Shown: positions 16,466-47,773 of the stretch, piece after piece | Numbering within the stretch: position 1 is the first letter of the stretch | How the letters are laid out: each line of letters begins with the position of its first letter | NCBI GenBank assembly: GCA_045617665.1 | Contig: JAZLIZ010000053.1 | Span: 2,844-66,843 of the forward strand | DNA from: Acutalibacteraceae bacterium | Lineage (GTDB): Bacteria; Bacillota; Clostridia; Oscillospirales; Acutalibacteraceae | DNA length: 64,000 nt | Reading direction: 5' to 3' | The notes under the pieces: model-generated | The model's database searches: none | Told to the model about the DNA's origin: nothing | Seen by the model: only the letters and a program-made list of their open reading frames with translations | Program-made: the position numbers and the translations under genes

Positions 16466-18313
16466 TTAATTTCTGAATGCTTCGTAAACTGCCTGTGCTG
16501 ATTTTTCCGTCATACCCTTGACCGATTTCAGCTCATCAACAGTTGCTTCGGAGATTGCCTTGATTGTTTTGAATTTTTTAAGCAAAGCCCTTGCTCTTGC
16601 TTCGCCTATGCCGTCAATATTGACGAGGGTTGTGGAAATGGAAGCTTTTTTATTTTTCAACCTGTGGTATTCAACCGAATAGCGGTGAACCTCCTCCTGT
16701 AGGCTCGAAACAAGCGTAAATGCGGAGCGCACAGAGGTCAAAGCGATTTCATCCCCGGAGGTGGCAATGGCTCTTGTGCGGTGGTGAGAATCCTTAATCA
16801 TACCGAAAAGGGGTATGTTCAGATTATGCTTCTGCAAAACGGGTAAAACAGCGTTGACCTGCCCCTTGCCGCCGTCAAGCAGAATTAAATCGGGCAGCTT
16901 GCCGAAGCCTTCTTCTTTATTTTCGGCAATTTCGTATTCATTCAGTCGTCTGTCAATAACCTCAGCCATTGATGCGTAATCATCCTGACCGCTGAAGCCC
17001 TTGATTGTGAAACGCCTGTATGCTTTCTTAAAGGGCTGACCGTTTTTGAAAACAACCATTCCGGCAACATTGTTTGTGCCGTCTGTGTGGGATATATCGT
17101 AGGATTCAATATATTCCGGCGGTGATTTCAAGCCAAGCAGCTTGCCGAGCTCATCAAGTGCGGCGGTAACTTTTCCGCCCTTTGAGCCCATATATATTGC
17201 AAGCTTTTGTGCAGCATTTGAACGGCACATTTCAATAAGTGAATGCTGTTCGCCACGCTGCGGAATAACTATATTAACCTTTTTACCTCTGATTGATGTA
17301 AGCCATTCCTGTAAAAGCTCGGAATCGGCAACATCACCGTCAAGAGCAACACGGCAGGGGACATCATTACGCATTGAATAATAGCTTCTGAGCAGTTCAC
17401 GGCGTGCCTCGGTTAAATCCTCCGGCAAATCAATGATGAAATGCTCGCTGTCAAAAAGCCTTGAATTTCTGAATCTTAAAACGGATAAACAGGCCTTTGC
17501 GTTGCTGCCGTTTGCTCCGCCGACTATCGCAAAAACATCCTGCTCCTCAACTGCGGCGGCAACAACCTTTTGCTTATCCGTAACCTTATTTATGGCGCTG
17601 ATTTTGTCACGGATTTTAGCCGCTTTTTCGTATTCCAGATTTTCAGAGTAGCTTTGCATTTTTGCGGTCAGCTCTTCAATCACCTTGCCGGAGCCCTCGG
17701 TTATAAAACGGCGAGCGTTATCAACCGCCTCGTTATGCTCTCTCATAGTGATTTTTCCGGCACAGGGTGCGGAGCATAAACCGATTGAATAATTCAGACA
17801 GGGTCGGCTTTTTTTATAATCCCTCGGAAAAACCTTTGAGCATTGTGGCAGCTTGAATATCTTTTTAGCGGAATCAACAGCATTAGAAATACCGAATGAG
17901 CTTATATAGGGTCCTAAATATTCGGCGCCGTCATCCTCCGCACGGCGAACAACGGAAATACTCTTCCAGCCCTTATGCTCAATTCTGATATAGCTGTAGC
18001 CCTTGTCATCCTTCAAAAGAATGTTGTATTTCGGGGAATGCTGCTTAATAAGAGAACATTCAAGAACAAGAGCCTCAAATTCGCTGTCACACATTATGTA
18101 ATCAAAGCGGTCAACATTTTCAACCATTTTTCTTACCTTGGCTGTGTGATTGTTCTGAGAGCCGAAATATTGGCTGACACGGTTTTTCAGTGCCTTTGCC
18201 TTGCCCACATATATTATATTGTCGGTTTTATCCTTCATAAGATAAACCCCCGGCGTAAGGGGGAGGCTCATTGCCTTCTTACGAAGCTCCTTGATTTTTT
18301 CGTTCATTTTCAT
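16466..18313 (-). CDS. uvrC: Excinuclease ABC subunit C
   Basis: GIY-YIG region (PGVYLMKD..IIYVGKAKALKNRVSQYF), ESYDISH, LPDLILLDGGKGQ, C-terminal HhH. Confidence 0.98.
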   Translation of the reverse strand: MKMNEKIKELRKKAMSLPLTPGVYLMKDKTDNIIYVGKAKALKNRVSQYFGSQNNHTAKVRKMVENVDRFDYIMCDSEFEALVLECSLIKQHSPKYNILLKDDKGYSYIRIEHKGWKSISVVRRAEDDGAEYLGPYISSFGISNAVDSAKKIFKLPQCSKVFPRDYKKSRPCLNYSIGLCSAPCAGKITMREHNEAVDNARRFITEGSGKVIEELTAKMQSYSENLEYEKAAKIRDKISAINKVTDKQKVVAAAVEEQDVFAIVGGANGSNAKACLSVLRFRNSRLFDSEHFIIDLPEDLTEARRELLRSYYSMRNDVPCRVALDGDVADSELLQEWLTSIRGKKVNIVIPQRGEQHSLIEMCRSNAAQKLAIYMGSKGGKVTAALDELGKLLGLKSPPEYIESYDISHTDGTNNVAGMVVFKNGQPFKKAYRRFTIKGFSGQDDYASMAEVIDRRLNEYEIAENKEEGFGKLPDLILLDGGKGQVNAVLPVLQKHNLNIPLFGMIKDSHHRTRAIATSGDEIALTSVRSAFTLVSSLQEEVHRYSVEYHRLKNKKASISTTLVNIDGIGEARARALLKKFKTIKAISEATVDELKSVKGMTEKSAQAVYEAFRN

Positions 18314-18393
18314 TTACCGCTTATCTTTGATAACAATATTATATATTCCCGTGCCCGTTTCGTCAAATATTTTTAATTATTATTAAAAAATAC

Positions 18394-18422
18394 TTGATTT
18401 TCTTCGTAAAATACATTACAAT
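18394..18422 (+). promoter_or_regulatory. Sigma-A promoter of tRNA-Ser
   Basis: TTGATT, 17 bp, TACAAT. Confidence 0.65.
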
Positions 18423-18459
18423 ACTAAAGCGTTAAATGCAGATGAAGTTTGACAGATTT

Positions 18460-18552
18460 GGAGAGTTGTCCGAGCTGGCCGAAGGAGCACGATTGGAAAT
18501 CGTGTAAACGGCAAACACCGTTTCAAGAGTTCAAATCTCTTACTCTCCGCCA
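18460..18552 (+). tRNA. tRNA-Ser (anticodon GGA)
   Basis: GGAGAG/CTCTCC acceptor stem, CACGA-TTGGAAA-TCGTG anticodon arm, long variable arm, GTTCAAATC T-loop, encoded CCA. Confidence 0.97.
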
Positions 18553-18595
18553 ACAAATAACACACTTTTGTCTACCAAAAGTGTGTTATTTGTTT
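18553..18595 (+). terminator. Intrinsic terminator after the tRNA
   Basis: Perfect 18-bp inverted repeat ACAAATAACACACTTTTG / CAAAAGTGTGTTATTTGT. Confidence 0.8.
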
Positions 18596-18598
18596 ATC

Positions 18599-18773
18599 CA
18601 AGCCGCAGGCTTGGCATATCATCACGGCGTAGCCGTGTATATCATCCGCCGTATGGCGGTATCTCATCACGGCAACGCCGTGTATTGTTTTCCTGCGGCT
18701 TGATGATATGCAATTCCTACGGAATTGATGAGATACAACACTTCGTGTTGATGATATACAAGGCTTCGCCTTG
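18599..18773. repeat. Mosaic hairpin array 1: seven short palindromes joined by 8-9-nt TATATCAT-type then ATGATATA-type linkers (REP/BIME-like)
   Basis: caagccGCAggcttg, cacggcGTAgccgtg, ccgccGTATggcgg, cacggcAACgccgtg, caattccTACggaattg, caacacTTCgtgttg, caaggcTTCgccttg. Confidence 0.9.
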
Positions 18774-18821
18774 ATTTATTTACCGAAGTATTATTTAATA
18801 CTTTTTGAAAGGAGTGGTTTT

Positions 18822-19196
18822 ATGGCTAAAAATTATTTACTCGATTATTCGGAACAACTTGCGACAGATATAGAATTGCTTTGCCGTAATATTAAAGCAC
18901 CATCCAATACCATTTTCCAAATCCGCAAAAGTTCCAGTAGTGTTTATGCTAACATCCGTGAAGCGAATTACGGTCAAAGCAAAGCGGATATGCTTTCAAA
19001 ATTTGAAATTGCAACAAAAGAATGCAGTGAAACTGAAGGTTGGCTCAAATTATTATTCAATTCAAACGATATTGATGAAGATACATATAAAAAGCACCGA
19101 AATTTGTGCGGAAGAATAAGGCGAATGCTTATTGCAAGTTCTAAAACACTTAAAAATTCTGACAAATCCAAATCTTCGGGAGAAAAACAGTCATGA
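18822..19196 (+). CDS. Four-helix-bundle protein (TIGR02436 / 23S rRNA IVP, Avd-like family)
   Basis: QIRKSSSSVYANIREA..GQSKADMLSKFEIATKECSETEGWLKLL signature; AAGGAG RBS before ATG 18822. Confidence 0.88.
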   Translation: MAKNYLLDYSEQLATDIELLCRNIKAPSNTIFQIRKSSSSVYANIREANYGQSKADMLSKFEIATKECSETEGWLKLLFNSNDIDEDTYKKHRNLCGRIRRMLIASSKTLKNSDKSKSSGEKQS

Positions 19197-19624
19197 ATAT
19201 CGAACTTATTCCTTTGCATCCCGAAGATAAAGATATATCAGATTTGAAGAAGATACACACTTCCTTGTCTGTTGCAAAATACATTTCCATATCCGAAAAT
19301 TACTTTGACTATGTTACAAATACGGACGGAGTAATTTATTATAAAATAATATGGAACGGTATATTAGCAGGTGGCGTTCATTGTGAATATACAGACGGAA
19401 CAATGTTTATGAGTGTATGTGTTGATGAATTATACCGTCGTCGCGGTATCGCCGAAGCGGCATTAAATCAACTGTTTCTTGCGCCGACAAGCGACGTGGA
19501 TGTGATCGAAGTAAATATTGAAGAAACAAATGTACCGTCACTTTTACTTTTTCAAAAACTCGGTTTTTCAAAAATCGGCAAAGAAGATGAATTGATAACC
19601 CTGCGAAAGTTATTACGACGATAA
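19193..19624 (+). CDS. GNAT family N-acetyltransferase
   Basis: VCVDELYRRRGIAE acetyl-CoA motif A, NVPSLLLFQKLGF motif B; ATGA overlap with the upstream gene. Confidence 0.88.
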   Translation: MNIELIPLHPEDKDISDLKKIHTSLSVAKYISISENYFDYVTNTDGVIYYKIIWNGILAGGVHCEYTDGTMFMSVCVDELYRRRGIAEAALNQLFLAPTSDVDVIEVNIEETNVPSLLLFQKLGFSKIGKEDELITLRKLLRR

Positions 19625-19697
19625 ATCCCGGCTTTTTGAGGTGTACCTTTTACTCGTTCTTACCTTAAAAATGTACCTTTTGGTTGCTCTTATACAG

Positions 19698-19731
19698 AAA
19701 AAAGCATCGACTTTTTGTCGGTGCTTTTTTT
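19698..19731 (+). terminator. Intrinsic terminator after the GNAT gene
   Basis: AAAAAAGCATCGAC-TTTTT-GTCGGTGCTTTTTTT. Confidence 0.75.
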
Positions 19732-19733
19732 CA

Positions 19734-20054
19734 ATGATATCCGTTCCTTGCGGAACGGGTGATATACCTTCGGTATGATATCCACCTGCGGTGGATGATA
19801 TATGCTTCGCATATGAAGGAACGGATAGTATATCATATTTGAGCAAAGCGAAAATATATCATACGGCATCAGCCGTATATCATATTGCCGTAAGGCGATA
19901 TATCATTAAATGTTCAATATCATCCGCCGTCAGGCGGTATATCATCAAAGGCGGCTTGCCGCCTTTGTATCTCATCACGGCATCAACCGTGTATTTTTTT
20001 GCGGCTTGATGATATACAACGCTTTGCGTTGATGATATATAAGGCTTCACCTTG
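19734..20054. repeat. Mosaic hairpin array 2: about 12 palindromic units with (A)TATCAT / ATGATAT(A) linkers, related to array 1
   Basis: ccgttccTTGCggaacgg, ccaccTGCggtgg, acggcATCAgccgt, ccgccGTCAggcgg, caaaggcggCTTGccgcctttg, caacgcTTTgcgttg; its 3' part parallels array 1 unit by unit. Confidence 0.88.
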
Positions 20055-20141
20055 ATTTTACAAGAGCTCAACGCAATCCGTCAATTTGTCGGGAATATCT
20101 TTTTTGTTCGTAATCATAAATAAAGTCAATCATAAATTAAA

Positions 20142-20165
20142 GCCACCCGTTTTGTGACGGGTGGT
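20142..20165. terminator. Hairpin left of the CRISPR array (could terminate a minus-strand pre-crRNA)
   Basis: GCCACCCGT-TTTGTG-ACGGGTGGT in AT-rich context. Confidence 0.55.
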
Positions 20166-20240
20166 TATGAATTTTTATAAGCATTATTGATTGGCAGTGG
20201 CGAAAATAAGTTACAGATGTTGAAAAATGAAATATATTAA

Positions 20241-20371
20241 CTGTAAGTTTATCAATATCCATCATAGGGCTAAAACATAACCGGTGTCGTGCAAATCAAT
20301 TTTGTTGTGTAAGTTTATCAATATCCATCATAGGGCTAAAACTGAGGCGTGACATCTTAAAGCAATTTTGG
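20241..20371 (-). CRISPR. Orphan type II CRISPR mini-array: two 36-nt repeats (GTTTTAGCCCTATGATGGATATTGATAAACTTACAC/G on the minus strand) with spacers of 30 and 29 nt
   Basis: Repeats at 20241-20276 and 20307-20342 (35/36 identical); spacers at 20277-20306 and 20343-20371; GTTTTAG start and 36/30 geometry typical of type II. Confidence 0.9.
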
Positions 20372-20493
20372 GTGTAAGTTTATCAATATCCATCAATAGT
20401 TCTAAGATAAGGCAATATGCCGTAGGGTATGGTGGTATCCTGACAAATGTCTAATCCACCGAATTATTACAGCCTGATAGGCTGTATTTTTTT
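20372..20493 (+). ncRNA. tracrRNA (anti-repeat, nexus, 3' hairpins, poly-U)
   Basis: 24 nt perfectly complementary to the repeat 3' part, bulge, CUAAGAU pairing with GUUUUAG (lower stem), AAGGCAAUAUGCC nexus resembling the SaCas9-type AAGGCAAAAUGCC, terminal TACAGCCT/AGGCTGTA hairpin + T7. Confidence 0.85.
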
Positions 20494-20715
20494 ATCTTTT
20501 TTATATATTCTTTTTCTAATTCAATCGCCTTTTCCGGGGCGGTAATTTTCATTTCTCCGGCAAAGGTGAAGAGCCAGCCCCAAAATGTTGGGCTAATTTG
20601 CACATCAACCTTTGTGGTGCAAGTGTTGCCGTTTGCTTTTATTTTTGTGTTATAGCTGAATTCATCATAAATAACAGGAATCAGCTTGCGGTCAAATTCA
20701 AGGGTAACCGCCGAG
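20451..20715 (-). pseudogene. 3' remnant of a WYL-domain transcriptional regulator (WCX domain only)
   Basis: VTLEFDRKLIPVIYDEF...VDVQISPTFWGWLFTFAGEMKITAPE resembles the C-terminal WCX domain of clostridial WYL proteins; no HTH or WYL part and no plausible RBS/start. Confidence 0.7.
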
Positions 20716-21156
20716 CCTCCACAGAGTTGCAGAAAGCAGGTTGCCGTATTTTTTGCTGTCATAAATCTGCTTTACTATTTCGTATTCGCTCCAGAAACGC
20801 AGACACTGTGCAACCATATATTTGACATTGTTTTCCTCTGCGGTTTTGTAGAGCAAGTCAACATCATCCTCGTTAAGAGAAACGGGCTTTTCGGAGAGCA
20901 CATTTATTCCCTTTTTCATTGCTCTTACGGCGTACTCTGCGTGCAGATATGTGGGCAGGCAGATATCAAGAATATCAATCTCGTTTTCATCCGTCATTTT
21001 ATCAAAATCGGTATATTTCTTTTCAACATCGTATCTTTCGGCTTTTTCGGGCAGAATATCGCAAACCGCAACAACCTCAACATCATCCATCGCAAGCCAG
21101 TTAGGCACATGAGCACCGCTGATTCCGCCGCATCCTATAACCGCAACCTTTAGCAT
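20698..21156 (-). pseudogene. Truncated Gfo/Idh/MocA oxidoreductase (N-terminal Rossmann domain only)
   Basis: VAVIGCGGIS, ICLPTYLH, SEKPV motifs; stops at 152 aa where the family is usually over 300 aa; good GGAGG RBS. Confidence 0.8.
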
Positions 21157-22620: not shown

Positions 22621-23211
22621 CTATATAGAGAAAATTCTCTTTCTTATTGCTGGTACTCTTATTAAAACGAATACCACAACTGCGGTTATTATAAATTCCG
22701 GCAGCAGATATATTCCGTTGTAGCAGAGGGAATAAAGAACAGGGGCATTTTCAAAGGTTGAGCCGAAAAGCTCCCACTGCTCAAGGTTTGTGAATATAAT
22801 GCAGCCGGAGAGAAAGTGGGAAGCAAAGCGTAAAAGCACGGCAATAAACAGCCCTGCAATTATTCCGGCTGTTCCCTTTTTTTTGAAAATTCCGGCAATG
22901 CCCAAAACCGTGTAAGCGACAATGTAATCAAACAGAATACAGCCTATGAGCATATTGGCATTTAAGCCCCAGCCGAGCAGACCGCTCATTGTTATGCCGA
23001 AAATAAGCTGAAAAACAGAATCGGCAAAGGCTGAAAGAAAGCCCCATTTTAAGCCGTGCCTGATTGAAACAAGGCAGACGGGCAGCATACTCACAAGGGT
23101 AACACCGCCGCCGAGCGGCATTTGCCATACCTTTATCAGAGATAAAACAACGGACATTGCAACAAGAATTGAGCTTTCTGCAAGTATATTGATTGGATTT
23201 TTACTTTTCAT
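22621..23211 (-). CDS. thiT: Energy-coupled thiamine transporter S component ThiT
   Basis: MPLGGGVTLVSMLP, LFDYIVAY, RFASHFLSG, YSLCYNGIY; TPP riboswitch upstream. Confidence 0.92.
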   Translation of the reverse strand: MKSKNPINILAESSILVAMSVVLSLIKVWQMPLGGGVTLVSMLPVCLVSIRHGLKWGFLSAFADSVFQLIFGITMSGLLGWGLNANMLIGCILFDYIVAYTVLGIAGIFKKKGTAGIIAGLFIAVLLRFASHFLSGCIIFTNLEQWELFGSTFENAPVLYSLCYNGIYLLPEFIITAVVVFVLIRVPAIRKRIFSI

Positions 23212-23239: not shown

Positions 23240-23272
23240 CAAAATGACCGCCGGAAGACCGACGGCCATTAA
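23240..23272 (-). terminator. Expression-platform terminator of the TPP riboswitch
   Basis: Minus strand ATGGCCGTCGG-TCTT-CCGGCGGTCAT followed by TTTGTTTT. Confidence 0.7.
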
Positions 23273-23283
23273 ACTTTTATCTG

Positions 23284-23364
23284 TCTTCCTACGCCGGCAT
23301 TATCCGTTTCAGGTTAAAGGGTTCGCATTCTGCATCTCAGCCGACTTTCAGTCAGCACCCCTGC
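23284..23364 (-). promoter_or_regulatory. TPP riboswitch aptamer
   Basis: Minus strand GGGGTGC..GGCTGAGA..ACCCTTTAACCTGAAACGGATAATGCCGGCGTAGGAAG matches the THI-box consensus. Confidence 0.93.
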
Positions 23365-23413
23365 TTTTTTATTTGTCTGAATTTTATCATAAGAAAAAGA
23401 ACTTGTCAACGGC

Positions 23414-46486: not shown

Positions 46487-47773
46487 GTGAACAAAATGTT
46501 CAAATCTGAAAATGTGGCAGACGGCGTAAGAGTTGTCTGCATTGAAACCGACAGATACAAAACCGCAGAGCTTGATATTTCAATGGCATTGCCCCTTGAT
46601 GATAATTGTGCTGCAAATGCACTTGCAATTTATCTGCTAAAGCGTTCCTGCAAGGCTTATCCCGATTTCACAATGCTCCACGGTAAGCTTGATGAGCTTT
46701 ACGGTGCATCTCTGGGTGCAAGTGCGGGAAAATACGGTGATTCGCAGATATTATCTCTCGGAATAACCTGCCTTGACGATAAATTTTCGCTTGATGAAAG
46801 CAGTATCATTGAAGAAGCCATTGAGCTTCTTTCCGGTATGCTCTTTAACCCCAATGTCAGATGCAGGTCATTCGGTAAAGAAAACTTTGAAACCGAAAAA
46901 AGGCTTATGCTTCAGCGTATTCTTGATGAGCAGGATGATAAAAGACTTTACGCAACACAGCAGTTGATTAAAAATATGTTTGCCGGAGAGCCGTACGGCA
47001 GAAGCAAATACGGCACAGAGGAAGAGATAAACGCCGTAACAATGGCTGATGTTTATGAAGCATGGCAGAATATGCTCACAAAATCCCGTATTCAGATTAC
47101 CTGTGTCGGCAGTATTTCAGCCGAAAGGGTAATTGAAATATTCAGAAAGAAATTTGCAAAGCTTCAGAGAACACCGGTTGAAATGAAATCGGTTTTCACA
47201 CCGAAAGCGGAAGCTTCAAAGAGATTTGAAGAAAGATTACCTATGAATCAGGGCAAATTCGTTATGGGCTACAGAACGGGAATGACCCATAACCACGATA
47301 ATGAATTTGCAGAGCGTATAGCGGTTGATATTTTCGGCGGCGGCACATATTCAAAGCTTTTCACCGTCATTCGTGAAAAAATGTCACTTTGTTATTATTG
47401 CCGTGCAACCCTCGTAACAGGCAAGGGCTTTGTGCTTGTTGACTGCGGTATTGATACCGATAAGGAGGAGCCTGCAACAAAGGGCATTATGCAGCAGCTT
47501 GAAGCGGTTAAAAACGGCGACTTTAATGATGATGTTCTTGCATCCTCAAAGCGTTCGCTCCGTGAAAGAATGACCTTTTCAACCCCGGACGGCATCCTTA
47601 TGTGGTATGCCGGCCAGATTACCGATGAAGAGCTTCGCACTCCCGAATATGTGATTGAAAACATTGAAAAGGTTACAAAGCAAGAGGTTATGGAATGTGC
47701 CGCAAAAATGAGCCTTGATACGGTGTTTATGCTGGCGGCTGATGAACCGGAGGGTGAGAAGGATGCAGATTAA
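46487..47773 (+). CDS. M16 peptidase-like inactive subunit (YmfF-like)
   Basis: SKLFTVIREKMSLCYY; no HxxEH; paired with the next gene. Confidence 0.85.
   Translation: MNKMFKSENVADGVRVVCIETDRYKTAELDISMALPLDDNCAANALAIYLLKRSCKAYPDFTMLHGKLDELYGASLGASAGKYGDSQILSLGITCLDDKFSLDESSIIEEAIELLSGMLFNPNVRCRSFGKENFETEKRLMLQRILDEQDDKRLYATQQLIKNMFAGEPYGRSKYGTEEEINAVTMADVYEAWQNMLTKSRIQITCVGSISAERVIEIFRKKFAKLQRTPVEMKSVFTPKAEASKRFEERLPMNQGKFVMGYRTGMTHNHDNEFAERIAVDIFGGGTYSKLFTVIREKMSLCYYCRATLVTGKGFVLVDCGIDTDKEEPATKGIMQQLEAVKNGDFNDDVLASSKRSLRERMTFSTPDGILMWYAGQITDEELRTPEYVIENIEKVTKQEVMECAAKMSLDTVFMLAADEPEGEKDAD

Follow-up and report, generated by a model that had tools for sequence, protein, structure and literature searches.

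The hairpin-array region of this window (the whole stretch of 64,000 nucleotides analysed here) is best explained, with a probability that we put at about one half, as a pile-up of three copies of a portable module found at the flank of tRNA genes, and not as one cassette lying between two sites. As we picture it, a full module would start, immediately 3' of the CCA of a tRNA or tmRNA gene, with a bidirectional terminator and continue with an element of about 180 bp, of class A or B, folding as a nested palindrome; a closing stem would surround three short hairpins, and a second part would hold three more hairpins in the opposite orientation, with TGATAT/ATATCA linkers throughout. An outward sigma-70 promoter, whose -35 box would be the last repeat unit, would then serve a very conserved, basic, Avd-like four-helix-bundle (4HB) gene whose clade corresponds to the class of the element, and optionally a translationally coupled accessory gene that is not the same in every copy. 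Of the window copies, module 1 is complete, its cargo being a GNAT, while the gene of module 2 (class B) has been lost and module 3 (class A) is truncated. The anatomy, the anchoring at tRNA and tmRNA genes, the cognate pairing, the position of the promoter, the high copy number, the variation in cargo and the fold of the protein are all observed in the data described below.

Read 5' to 3', the order is tRNA-Ser, bidirectional terminator, class A element, 4HB gene, GNAT gene, terminator, class B element and truncated class A element. The anchor of the arrangement is tRNA-Ser(GGA), with an encoded CCA (18460-18552, plus strand; ARAGORN, Rfam tRNA 49.6 bits). The terminator hairpin behind it (18552-18594), found as an inverted repeat with perfect 19-nt arms, a GTCTAC loop and A/T-rich flanks, forms the left part of module 1 and leads into the complete class A element (18594-18777, plus strand), identified by our nhmmer class A model (150 bits, model positions 1-182) and by the hairpin parse. 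A second terminator hairpin of 14-15 bp (19697-19731), with an A-run before and a T-run after it, closes the 4HB-GNAT operon and at the same time forms the left part of module 2, whose complete class B element (19729-19908, plus strand; nhmmer class B model, 137 bits) is not followed by a 4HB-B gene in the window copy. The last element is a 5'-truncated class A copy (19917-20058, plus strand; model positions 23-159, nhmmer 79 bits, aligned with array 1), devoid of terminator, first hairpin and gene. Its sequence occurs elsewhere with an intact 5' hairpin, as seen in metagenome contigs with loose ends at 19917.

The arrays lie where the earlier note had placed them, and their repeats are far beyond chance: TATATCAT is present 14 times in the window versus 1.9 expected (shuffle maximum 7), with 10 of the 14 copies within 18638-20039, and GATGATAT 20 times versus 2.3. 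Each array is built from triplets of units in opposite orientation. Array 1 comprises seven short perfect hairpins (18598-18773) separated by 8-nt linkers, its left units being a hairpin plus ATATCAT and its right units ATGATAT plus a hairpin. More precisely, the class A copy opens with the hairpin CCAAGCC-gca-GGCTTGG, followed by three hairpins each with (T)ATATCAT; its centre, CCTGCGGCTTG, is complementary to the 5' arm plus loop, and its 3' half holds three hairpins each preceded by ATGATAT(A) before a terminal TTGATTT. The class B copy begins with CAATGATAT-CCGTTCC-ttgc-GGAACGG and three hairpins each after TGATAT, then has the centre GGAACGGATA and three hairpins each before TATATCAT; the order A-run, hairpin, T-run, CAATGATAT is common to all class B copies, the window one included. 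L015 carries a variant in which the linkers read TTACAT, and has a 4HB protein of its own. Array 2 is therefore composite, a full element of the second class followed by the 5'-truncated copy of the array 1 class. That copy is colinear with array 1 and in the same orientation, as had been claimed for the 3' part of array 2; whole hairpin units have been gained or lost between the two. A fourth array called by the unit detector at 47098-47208 was discarded as a chance cluster of TGAAAT within a gene.

The arrays do not constitute a new motif, since part of them is Gut-1 of Rfam (RF01706), which matches 19732-19806 on the plus strand with 66.1 bits over the full model (1-77; gathering score 50). 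The match is confined to the first half of the class B element; other triplets stay under the gathering score, with 34.4 bits (19851-19925, minus strand) and 18.4 bits (18611-18690, minus strand). Class A is a relative missed by Rfam. In its original description Gut-1 is an orphan small RNA of human-gut metagenomes, to which neither a context nor a function was assigned (Weinberg et al. 2010, PMC2864571). Class B elements have this motif as their first half, with three hairpins joined by U/GUGAxAU linkers; the canonical Gut-1 class has GAAAT linkers. Here, by contrast, the motif makes up one half of an element that has two-fold symmetry, a length of about 180 bp and a sister class A, and the candidate RNA is found behind tRNA/tmRNA genes and ahead of 4HB genes.

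We then looked at the distribution of the elements. Strong matches number 79 in about 75 loci from gut Clostridia MAGs, mostly Acutalibacteraceae and Oscillospiraceae. Of 64 strong elements, 36 lie 30-43 nt 3' of a co-oriented tRNA or tmRNA gene, covering 22 anticodons among the tRNA-anchored ones, and no strong element of these 64 has any other arrangement relative to a tRNA or tmRNA. Counting tRNA genes only, 35 of 65 elements have one on their own strand that ends 30-43 nt upstream. Seen from the other side, an element follows 39 of the 58 tRNA/tmRNA run-ends in the loci; the upstream gene is tmRNA in four loci (L025, L121, L122 and L138). Starting from the protein gave the same picture, with a tRNA or tmRNA and then class A in 4 of 5 contexts of 4HB-A, the clade of the window gene. 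Most contigs carrying a 4HB gene are shorter than 2 kb, and many start 60-340 nt ahead of it. The strongest genomic association of the arrays is thus with tRNA and tmRNA genes, at their 3' ends, and it had been missed in the earlier note. The terminator begins right after the CCA end of the tRNA or tmRNA gene, and families of terminator hairpins, cttttgtctaccaaaag and cgacaagtttcgacttgtcg among them, recur behind many tRNA species and with both element classes. Gut-1 also scores above its gathering threshold in L005, L053, L073 and L093 (54-69 bits). The 118 viral loci (1.08 Mb), which double as a specificity control, match neither element model among the linker-pattern matches listed (0 of 118). 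A phage origin was considered and set aside, as these viral loci lack the elements and no 4HB-A relative was present in the viral contigs scanned.

We asked whether the arrays are RNA or DNA structures. Stems vary with compensatory changes while linkers are conserved: covariation supports 24 of 42 consensus pairs in class A (38 copies) and 15 of 49 in class B, whose consensus fold has a 14-bp closing stem, and the long-range complementarity between the 5' arm and the centre of class A reaches 10.8 nt versus 6.2 nt when permuted. This abundant covariation in both classes would fit arrays that are a non-coding RNA, transcribed by read-through from the strongly expressed tRNA or tmRNA gene or from an unseen promoter, with the 4HB protein as RNA-binding partner in a ribonucleoprotein, in the manner of Avd with the DGR RNA. 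Such an RNA would also agree with the Gut-1 scores above gathering in the window and the four other loci, with the loop polarity (TTC/TTCG/TTGC after TGATAT), with the class B strand bias (the plus strand folds 6.3 kcal/mol better in 16 of 19 copies, p=5e-4), with Avd relatives being bound to RNA in 8UB7, and with one metatranscriptome contig that spans a tRNA 3' end and the terminator and continues into a class A element. The element, however, has an intrinsic terminator before it and the next promoter after it, class A shows no preference for either strand in folding energy, and the two halves of an element are reverse-complementary, so that one strand would hold three "antisense" units. Moreover, arrays are found at 20-80 times the depth of flanking genes in gut metagenome DNA and are not enriched in RNA runs, a weak comparison as the latter consists of assembled metatranscriptome contigs only, without read direction. 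The parsed stems are also nearly pure Watson-Crick (1155 pairs, 1 G:T), which speaks against RNA but is not decisive; we rejected the poverty in G:U as a test of RNA versus DNA, nearby terminators being equally poor and hence not discriminating, and compared strand free energies instead. Taken together, an RNA element has some plausibility but is on balance doubtful.

The same features can be read from the side of host DNA, the arrays being palindromes of the BIME/REP type kept by the host in order to buffer topology or transcription between very strongly expressed stable-RNA genes and the promoter that follows, of which 4HB would be a frequent passenger. The position is fixed, at the end of a tRNA/tmRNA transcription unit and before a promoter, the short palindromes are perfect on both strands, class A lacks a strand bias, the module is stable at a tRNA-Lys in two species, and many elements sit in front of ordinary genes. 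The arrays resemble the REP/BIME-RAYT, BOX (pneumococcus) and Correia (Neisseria) families, which are high-copy intergenic palindromes with alternating modules, located after genes and able to carry promoters, and REP too has a dedicated associated gene. On the other hand, the REP palindrome is conserved beside a GTAG, while here stems vary freely and the 8-nt linkers are conserved, and the partner gene is a non-catalytic four-helix bundle instead of the HUH Y1 transposase of REP/BIME-RAYT systems. To our knowledge, strict placement at tRNA or tmRNA genes is not a feature of the REP/BIME, BOX or Correia families. A host-kept palindrome would not account for the strict A/A and B/B pairing between elements and 4HB clades, nor for 4HB being so extremely conserved and so high in copy number. 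It would also leave unexplained why unrelated tRNAs share terminators, why tandem and truncated copies exist and why the GC is low, and we regard this explanation as unlikely.

The pairing involves a gene located at 18822-19196 (plus strand) that encodes a 4HB-A protein of 124 aa and pI 9.1, matching PF05635 with 66.2 bits (cutoff 33.8) and TIGR02436 with 72.1 bits (cutoff 24). Its AlphaFold model (pLDDT 90.8) has helices at residues 5-22, 28-48, 54-80 and 86-118, and Foldseek TM scores are 0.8-0.9 to 2RLD, 0.72-0.83 to 2GSC and 0.65-0.82 to 4DWL/8UB7 (DGR Avd), so that the predicted fold is a four-helix bundle as in BT_0352, Xcc0516 and Avd. Avd and BT_0352 are pentamers in crystals, and Avd is bound to RNA in DGR ribonucleoprotein entries (8UB7). 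The relatives of 4HB form 3735 protein clusters, of which the best 120 are at 83-97% identity, in contrast with UvrC, whose relatives fall to 75% identity or less after two matches. The earlier note had proposed that arrays and four-helix-bundle genes belong together, and this link proved real and clade-specific: all 12 4HB-A genes lie behind class A and all 8 4HB-B genes behind class B, with no cross pairs; the two clades are 45% identical, and the cognate genes start 41-78 nt downstream of the element on the same strand. The association holds in that the cognate pairing is strict, but not in the other direction, since about two thirds of the elements have no 4HB gene. This, together with a 4HB-A gene that has no array in L128, counts against the module; in addition, the cognate pairing could be simple linkage.

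With the DGR Avd proteins (4DWL, 8UB7), 2RLD and 2GSC, the window protein shares family by HMM, fold and basic character, and relatives in the Avd/PF05635 family form pentamers, binding nucleic acid beside a structured RNA. Unlike in a DGR, 4HB has no adjacent reverse transcriptase or template/variable repeat, the repeats here being hairpin arrays, and unlike the DGR Avd gene it is multi-copy and tRNA-linked, with a hairpin array ahead of it. Likeness extends to the ORF of the 23S rRNA intervening sequences (IVS), which belongs to the same protein family, is located at a stable-RNA gene and has strongly pairing flanking repeats; in Coxiella and Leptospira this sequence is regarded as a selfish element (PMC4990558). 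The 4HB gene differs in being outside the rRNA helix, with which it is not excised, and downstream of a tRNA or tmRNA, past a terminator and with a promoter of its own; no rRNA match was found in the 64-kb window.

Between the array and the 4HB gene, the sequence suggests an outward sigma-70 promoter (18771-18799, plus strand), with a -35 box TTGATT that is the end of the last repeat unit, a 17-nt spacer and a -10 box TTTAAT. It was read from the sequence and by homology to 4HB-linked copies; a consensus promoter scan made no call for it in the window, and the window -10 is weaker than the TGnTATAAT of the relatives, whose extended -10 lies 16-18 nt past the element end. This order also sets the module apart from type III toxin-antitoxin systems (ToxIN-like: promoter, tandem direct RNA repeats, terminator, toxin), the order here being terminator, inverted triplets, promoter, gene.

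The start of the GNAT acetyltransferase gene (19193-19624, plus strand; 143 aa, PF00583 32.5 bits) overlaps the 4HB stop codon in an ATGA, thus confirming, together with the terminator hairpin at 19697-19731 and a PF05635 score of 66 bits, the coupled and terminated four-helix-bundle/GNAT pair of the earlier note. Across 11 loci, nucleotide conservation is 0.65-0.94 from the tRNA end to about 4HB codon 110, then falls to background by about 19150-19196, and the conserved unit extends from the terminator to about codon 110, with the cargo outside. The window GNAT is variable cargo, as conservation drops at the 3' end of 4HB and unrelated genes occupy this place elsewhere. The prediction that cargo varies was borne out, as the gene after 4HB differs among loci and is often ATGA-coupled; GNATs, a WapI-like immunity protein, a beta-lactamase-fold protein and a lipoprotein were found there, and the syntenic loci L006 and L087 carry different cargo. 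The GC content of 4HB plus GNAT is 35% versus 42.7% for the window. We also considered the GNAT as a toxin of the TacT/AtaT type with 4HB as antitoxin and rejected this pair, as the GNAT has only generic RimI/NAT-like matches in the PDB and unrelated proteins take the cargo position elsewhere.

Variable cargo is what an integron- or REP-like cassette would show, in which the two arrays are paired recombination sites that 4HB recognises in order to swap cargo. In the window 4HB-GNAT does sit between related arrays, the variable genes (GNATs, immunity protein, beta-lactamase-fold protein) resemble those of integron cassettes, in which small accessory genes also lie near folded repeats in tandem modules, and the syntenic loci differ in cargo. 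Yet flanking by two arrays is not conserved (L001, L006, L087, L138): no array lies downstream in the L001 copy, whose 4HB protein is identical and whose DNA is 94% identical over the 1087 nt in common. Instead of a second site of the same cassette, the window's downstream arrays are two further decayed modules, separate from the first and with their own terminator, and the array does not enclose the cargo but sits upstream of the 4HB promoter, between terminator and -35 box. Also, the conservation breakpoint falls at the 4HB 3' end and not at an array, variable stems with conserved linkers are the reverse of REP and attC, and no integrase, HUH transposase or other recombinase is nearby. An integron, moreover, has an integrase with attI beside its cassettes, and its attC is one imperfect palindrome (R''-L''...L'-R') 3' of a promoterless cassette, while the repeat here is an array of six to seven hairpins 5' of a promoter and a constant gene, with cargo joining at the 4HB stop. 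Two paired sites are thus very unlikely; from the cassette system first proposed, the link between array and 4HB and the variable cargo are retained, and the bracketing and the inclusion of cargo within the unit are not.

We also searched for signs of movement. As traces of spread we counted the depth of the arrays, the copy number and identity of 4HB, the same terminators behind different tRNAs, the tandem, truncated and interrupted element copies that exist among the loci, the low GC, and the finding in L039 and L080 of array, 4HB and cargo between the tRNA and a direct repeat of its 3' end. In L006 and L087, from two species, the module is kept at the same tRNA-Lys, which indicates vertical stability. 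L138 and L141 share 4HB and cargo behind tmRNA and tRNA-Ser(GCT), respectively; because the L141 contig of 1.5 kb is possibly chimeric, we do not take this as proof of movement. Among the relatives reachable through UvrC, no empty site or strain-level presence/absence allele was found; those at 72% and 84% identity have no tRNA adjoining uvrC, and in the one at 94% the contig stops within the tRNA. Neither UvrC nor the metallophosphoesterase has an exact match on record. Joints from 18615 to 19917 in DNA and RNA metagenome contigs, which might have been a cassette deletion, turned out to be further class A copies, intact and following different tRNAs.

The 3' ends of tRNA and tmRNA genes are classical integrase targets, and the arrays could in principle be arm-type binding regions of small integrative elements, remnant islands served by tyrosine integrases in trans. 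Direct repeats of the tRNA 3' end, 16-20 nt long, are present in eight loci (L005, L022, L039, L042, L054, L055, L062 and L080), and in L039 and L080 a repeat of 15-16 nt encloses array, 4HB and cargo between itself and the tRNA. Genomic islands at tRNA/tmRNA genes and cis-mobilisable elements share this target, and the repeats in some loci are a further likeness; the modules differ in measuring 0.6-1.3 kb, in having no integrase and usually no repeat, and in lying behind more than 20 tRNA species. Indeed, most modules lack a tRNA-end repeat, which among 4HB loci is found only in L039 and L080, and in the window the tRNA-Ser 3' end is not repeated directly, at up to 3 mismatches in 17 nt. Five loci have the repeat between tRNA and array, which makes the array the older flank and the repeat the product of a different small insert. 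Furthermore, 22 anticodons would demand many specificities. The genes within about 8 kb of the window locus encode no recombinase, integrase, HUH transposase or reverse transcriptase domain, the neighbours being housekeeping genes, and contain no rRNA, as the earlier note had observed; nor did the called genes of the related loci examined yield a recombinase or integrase domain. We consider remnant integrase islands highly improbable.

Returning to the portable tRNA-flank module, it would spread or duplicate as one unit, reaching stable-RNA genes at their 3' ends. The array would act as a structured nucleic acid, either through hairpins that extrude from the DNA or in single-stranded form, and the 4HB protein, probably a pentamer like its solved relatives, would bind its own array. 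This putative binding would control the array-embedded promoter and might also flag the module to a recombination or replication function of the host, by which it would be moved. The module and its surroundings encode no enzyme for movement, and a helical bundle of about 115 aa is itself unlikely to be a catalyst, both of which argue against the mobility of the module. A bolder and distinctly unlikely proposal is that the modules represent a small mobile cassette of a new kind, homing precisely to the 3' CCA end of tRNA or tmRNA genes, with the array as a cis-acting single-strand fold and the 4HB pentamer as specificity factor. The pentamer would then recruit a host polymerase or recombinase, one possibility being a reverse transcriptase for which the tRNA CCA end of a terminator-ended transcript serves as priming site. 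This would account for the constant junction of CCA, A-run, hairpin and T-run; translational coupling would let new genes be captured at the stop codon of 4HB.

The three-way link between a Gut-1-type repeat, tRNA/tmRNA genes and a four-helix-bundle gene was not found in the searchable literature, and the connection of repeat, stable-RNA flank and matching 4HB gene appears to be undescribed. Gut-1 has reportedly been an orphan "RNA" since 2010, and PF05635/TIGR02436 is, as far as we know, a very large family with DGR Avd as its only understood member. Tying the two to each other and to tRNA/tmRNA ends gives both orphans a concrete context in which they are testable, and opens a direct experiment, which asks if the 4HB protein of each clade binds the array of its own class, and as what form of nucleic acid. 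Considered together with the ORFs of 23S rRNA intervening sequences, our results suggest that four-helix-bundle genes lodge at stable-RNA genes beside strongly folding repeats. In practical terms, the elements break short-read assemblies at tRNA loci. Finally, if the module is mobile, it would offer acetyltransferases, immunity proteins and hydrolases a new route to gain a promoter and spread among gut Clostridia.

In the window, tRNA-Ser(GGA) (18460-18552) is directly followed by a hairpin with perfect 19-nt arms (18552-18594) and by array 1, seven short perfect hairpins (18598-18773) that hairpin parsing and a profile model (150 bits) resolve as a complete class A element, one of two classes of a nested-palindrome hairpin array of about 180 bp. 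Hairpins 1-4 are each followed by (T)ATATCAT and the last three each preceded by ATGATAT(A), and the central CCTGCGGCTTG pairs with the 5' arm and loop of the first hairpin. On the 3' side, a ribosome-binding site precedes a 124-aa four-helix-bundle (4HB) gene (18822-19196; PF05635, 66.2 bits; TIGR02436, 72.1 bits), whose stop overlaps (ATGA) the start of a gene for a generic GNAT protein of 143 aa (19193-19624). A terminator of 14-15 bp (19697-19731) comes next, with array 2 directly 3' of it, in which the profile models recognized a complete class B element (19729-19908, 137 bits) and a class A copy without the first 22 model positions (19917-20058, 79 bits). The linker word TATATCAT was found 14 times in the window against 1.9 expected, 10 of them within this 1.5 kb, and GATGATAT 20 times against 2.3. 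As these words are far above chance and the arrays and genes could be located, the observation of the earlier note, two related hairpin arrays around a 4HB-GNAT pair, is confirmed. At the far end, a promoter-like site (TTGACG-18-TAAAAT, 20055-20084, minus strand, 10/12) points left into array 2 and, as no more than a consensus match, could be a source of an antisense element transcript.

We then looked for relatives in one genome per species, requiring three ATGATAT linkers at hairpin spacing, and obtained at least 120 loci. Those listed came mostly from gut MAGs labelled Acutalibacteraceae, Oscillospiraceae, Eubacteriales or Clostridia; among them, 75 of 122 had at least four units (a hairpin plus its linker), most commonly three inverted then three direct units, or the opposite. 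Two profile models were built from the copies adjoining 4HB genes: class A starts with CCAAGCCGCAGGCTTGG and ends with TTGATTT, and class B starts with CAATGATATCCGTTCC..GGAACGG, has GGAACGGATAT at its centre and ends with ATATCATTGAAA. Among the loci listed, the models gave 79 strong matches whose orientation was clear, one strand scoring about 150 bits and the other about 50, and no match in the 1.08 Mb of viral DNA from listed loci with the same linker pattern.

The strongest association of the elements is with tRNA and tmRNA genes, an anchor that the earlier note had missed. Of the 65 elements that had sufficient room and an undamaged 5' end, 35 had a same-strand tRNA, of 22 anticodons in all, ending 30-43 nt upstream, and tmRNA takes this place in four loci (L025, L121, L122 and L138). 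The anchored arrangement was seen in 36 of 64 strong elements; in none of the 64 did a tRNA lie at the other end or on the opposite strand. Conversely, 39 of the 58 tRNA/tmRNA run-ends in these loci had an element within 100 nt, and several others a weaker or displaced one. An A-run, a hairpin and a T-run invariably separate the CCA end from the element. A rival reading, in which the array is a host insulator, does not explain the terminators: a few hairpin families recur after unrelated tRNAs and with both element classes, indicating that the terminator is part of the repeated unit. Tandem modules also occur in L015, L042, L062, L111 and L118. In L111 (101-641), three class B elements stand head to tail after tRNA-Leu(GAG) with no genes between them, read by the unit detector as a 19-unit run of alternating triplets; in L128 (300-570), a 68-nt insert splits the class B element that lies behind tRNA-Ser(GGA).

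Another rival takes the element to be an RNA, and part of array 2 has an Rfam identity, also missed by the earlier note, as Gut-1 (RF01706): cmscan places a match at 19732-19806 (66.1 bits, gathering score 50), with two weaker minus-strand matches, one of 34.4 bits at 19851-19925 and one of 18.4 bits at 18611-18690. A 2010 publication introduced Gut-1 as a candidate small RNA, seen only in human-gut metagenomes and given no function or context (PMC2864571); the searchable literature yielded no later paper about it. For 16 of 19 class B copies, the plus strand gave the better RNA fold (p=5e-4), and class A was unbiased. Elements with the canonical Gut-1 spelling of the linkers (ATTTCA/TGAAAT) also lie behind tRNA genes (L053:2985-3149, L093:222-358, L095:7728-7844) and sometimes have a class A or B element after them; none of these three showed a 4HB gene downstream, in a sample selected for TGATAT linkers.

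In 202 parsed hairpins, 1155 stem pairs were Watson-Crick and 4 were not, with stem sequences varying freely; loops are pyrimidine-rich on the TGATAT-reading strand and reverse-complemented in inverted units. RNAalifold detected compensatory changes in 24 of 42 consensus pairs of class A and 15 of 49 of class B, where it favoured enclosing the first triplet in a closing stem of 14 bp. The class A 5' arm and centre covary through at least 6 sequence variants, their perfect complementarity averaging 10.8 nt against 6.2 nt when arms and centres are re-paired; 0 of 200 permutations reached the observed value. Copies differ by gain or loss of whole hairpin units. In a variant class A element (L015:7541-7713), left linkers TATGTAAT and right linkers ATTACATA replace TATATCAT and ATGATATA, the two sides remaining reverse-complementary despite the change; the most divergent 4HB-A protein is encoded 3' of it, and the two may represent a matched change of specificity.

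Results also showed that arrays and 4HB genes belong together, as the earlier note had proposed. Using the window protein as phmmer query, we found 4HB genes in 18 loci, each directly adjoining an element. Genes of clade 4HB-A (MAKNYLL.YSEQLATDIELLC...) follow 12 class A elements and those of 4HB-B (MSENKLLDLSFEFAVAIVN...) 8 class B elements, 41-78 nt 3' of the element and on the same strand, with no cross pair among these 12 and 8, the clades being 45% identical; the association is real and cognate. When the protein was taken as the starting point, the contexts with sufficient upstream sequence were tmRNA-A-4HB (L138), tRNA-Ser(GCT)-A-4HB (L141), tRNA-Gln(CTG)-A-4HB (L264) and the window. In most copies an extended -10 box (TGnTATAAT) lies 16-18 nt past the element-final TTGATT or TTGAAA, so that the array is upstream of a promoter and overlaps its -35 box; the window has a weaker TTTAAT, and metatranscriptomes contain contigs covering the coding region. 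In L128 (3549-3950), one further context reached from the protein, a gene for a DUF559 protein (Vsr-like endonuclease) between CCTCCCTC...GAGGGAGG repeats occupies the array position directly upstream of the 4HB-A promoter. A conserved promoter and leader (…GGCACCCGCA.CCGATTGTAATTT…TGTGGTATAATCA.TTCGATAAATAAGAATTT…), found 3' of both classes, precede unrelated genes (L044, L095, L118:245-330, L043, L114 and L080:760-860, minus strand) and may be a further portable expression module or operator.

The AlphaFold model of the protein is a four-helix bundle (pLDDT 90.8), for which Foldseek returned 2RLD first (TM 0.8-0.9), then 2GSC, then Avd of DGRs (TM 0.65-0.82), both by itself (4DWL) and as part of the DGR ribonucleoprotein (8UB7 and related entries). 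Because crystal entries of relatives contain five chains, 4HB, a basic protein (pI 9.1), is likely a pentamer by analogy. The family is known in 23S rRNA intervening sequences (PMC4990558), and PF05635 genes are reportedly scattered in cas loci (PMC3936711). It is also known from DGRs.

Among 11 4HB-A loci of different organisms, conservation at the nucleotide level is 0.65-0.94 between the tRNA end and 4HB codon ~110, array and promoter included, and drops to a background of about 0.45 at window positions ~19150-19196, the C-terminal tail being variable. The cargo, the gene after 4HB, varies, as the earlier note had proposed: a GNAT of one of two kinds, an immunity protein resembling WapI, a lipoprotein, a protein with a beta-lactamase fold, small acidic or membrane proteins, or none, with ATGA overlaps in the window, L001, L039, L048, L087 and L138. 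The syntenic loci L006 and L087 (88-94% identity) differ in just such a gene. An integron-like system is a rival here; genes within ~8 kb of the window locus include no reverse transcriptase, recombinase or cas gene, which agrees with the earlier note on the first two. The geometry given in that note, a cassette bracketed by two arrays, did not hold. L001 and L002 encode the window's 4HB protein and share 1087 nt at 94% nucleotide identity (most of array 1, 4HB and GNAT) in a different neighbourhood; both are without the downstream array, so that the bracketing is an accident of the window locus.

Several signs point to spread. In gut metagenomes, array words reach 20-80 times the depth of flanking genes. 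The best 120 of 3735 clusters in a 4HB-A search were 83-97% identical, mostly on contigs <2 kb; UvrC of the same organisms fell to 75% identity or less after two matches. GC content is 35.2% for 4HB plus GNAT versus 42.7% for the window. A remnant left by an integrase is the remaining rival, and direct repeats bear on it. In L039 and L080, terminator, array, 4HB and cargo are enclosed by the tRNA and a direct repeat, 15-16 nt long, of its 3' end; such a repeat is absent in most 4HB loci. In L005, L022, L042, L054 and L055, it lies between tRNA and array, behind a different short insert, which makes the array the older flank there. No empty site was found, the UvrC relatives reached having no tRNA beside uvrC or lying on a contig that ends inside the tRNA. 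A second small insert type was noticed at tRNA 3' ends in these five loci and in L062, L080 and L039 (for example L055:4750-5070 and L080:960-1170, both minus strand): tRNA, own terminator, 140-480 nt and the tRNA 3' end once more as a direct repeat of 16-20 nt. Within the insert are a T-arm-like piece in inverted orientation (GAAGGGATTCGAACC...) and a hairpin, AAACAGTCCGGnGGACTGTTTTT, that these inserts share. It lacks an integrase and resembles a miniature integrative element or the scar of one.

Other features lie near the locus. About 180 nt past the last element, a mini CRISPR-like array (20242-20407) has three 35-36-nt repeats (TGTAAGTTTATCAATATCCATCATAGGGCTAAAAC), the third degenerate, and spacers of 30-31 nt; the repeat's reverse complement starts GTTTTAGCCC and looks type II-like, and no cas gene lies within ~8 kb. 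Beside it, a GFO/IDH/MocA oxidoreductase gene (20451-21156, minus strand) retains only the N-terminal Rossmann part (152 aa), followed by a separate overlapping 103-aa ORF; the L260 homologue has 352 aa, and the gene is probably disrupted. A low-GC patch (35-39%, ~18000-20700) contains this fragment. An ordinary TPP riboswitch (23269-23372, minus strand, 57.3 bits) precedes a thiamine transporter gene (22621-23211).

In conclusion, terminator, nested-palindrome array, promoter and cognate 4HB gene form a modular repeat unit that is anchored at the 3' ends of stable-RNA genes, is present in high copy, is often tandem or decayed, and carries variable downstream genes. We infer that this unit propagates as a whole and that its array would act as a folded nucleic acid, with a 4HB oligomer as the putative array binder that would, at minimum, regulate the embedded promoter.
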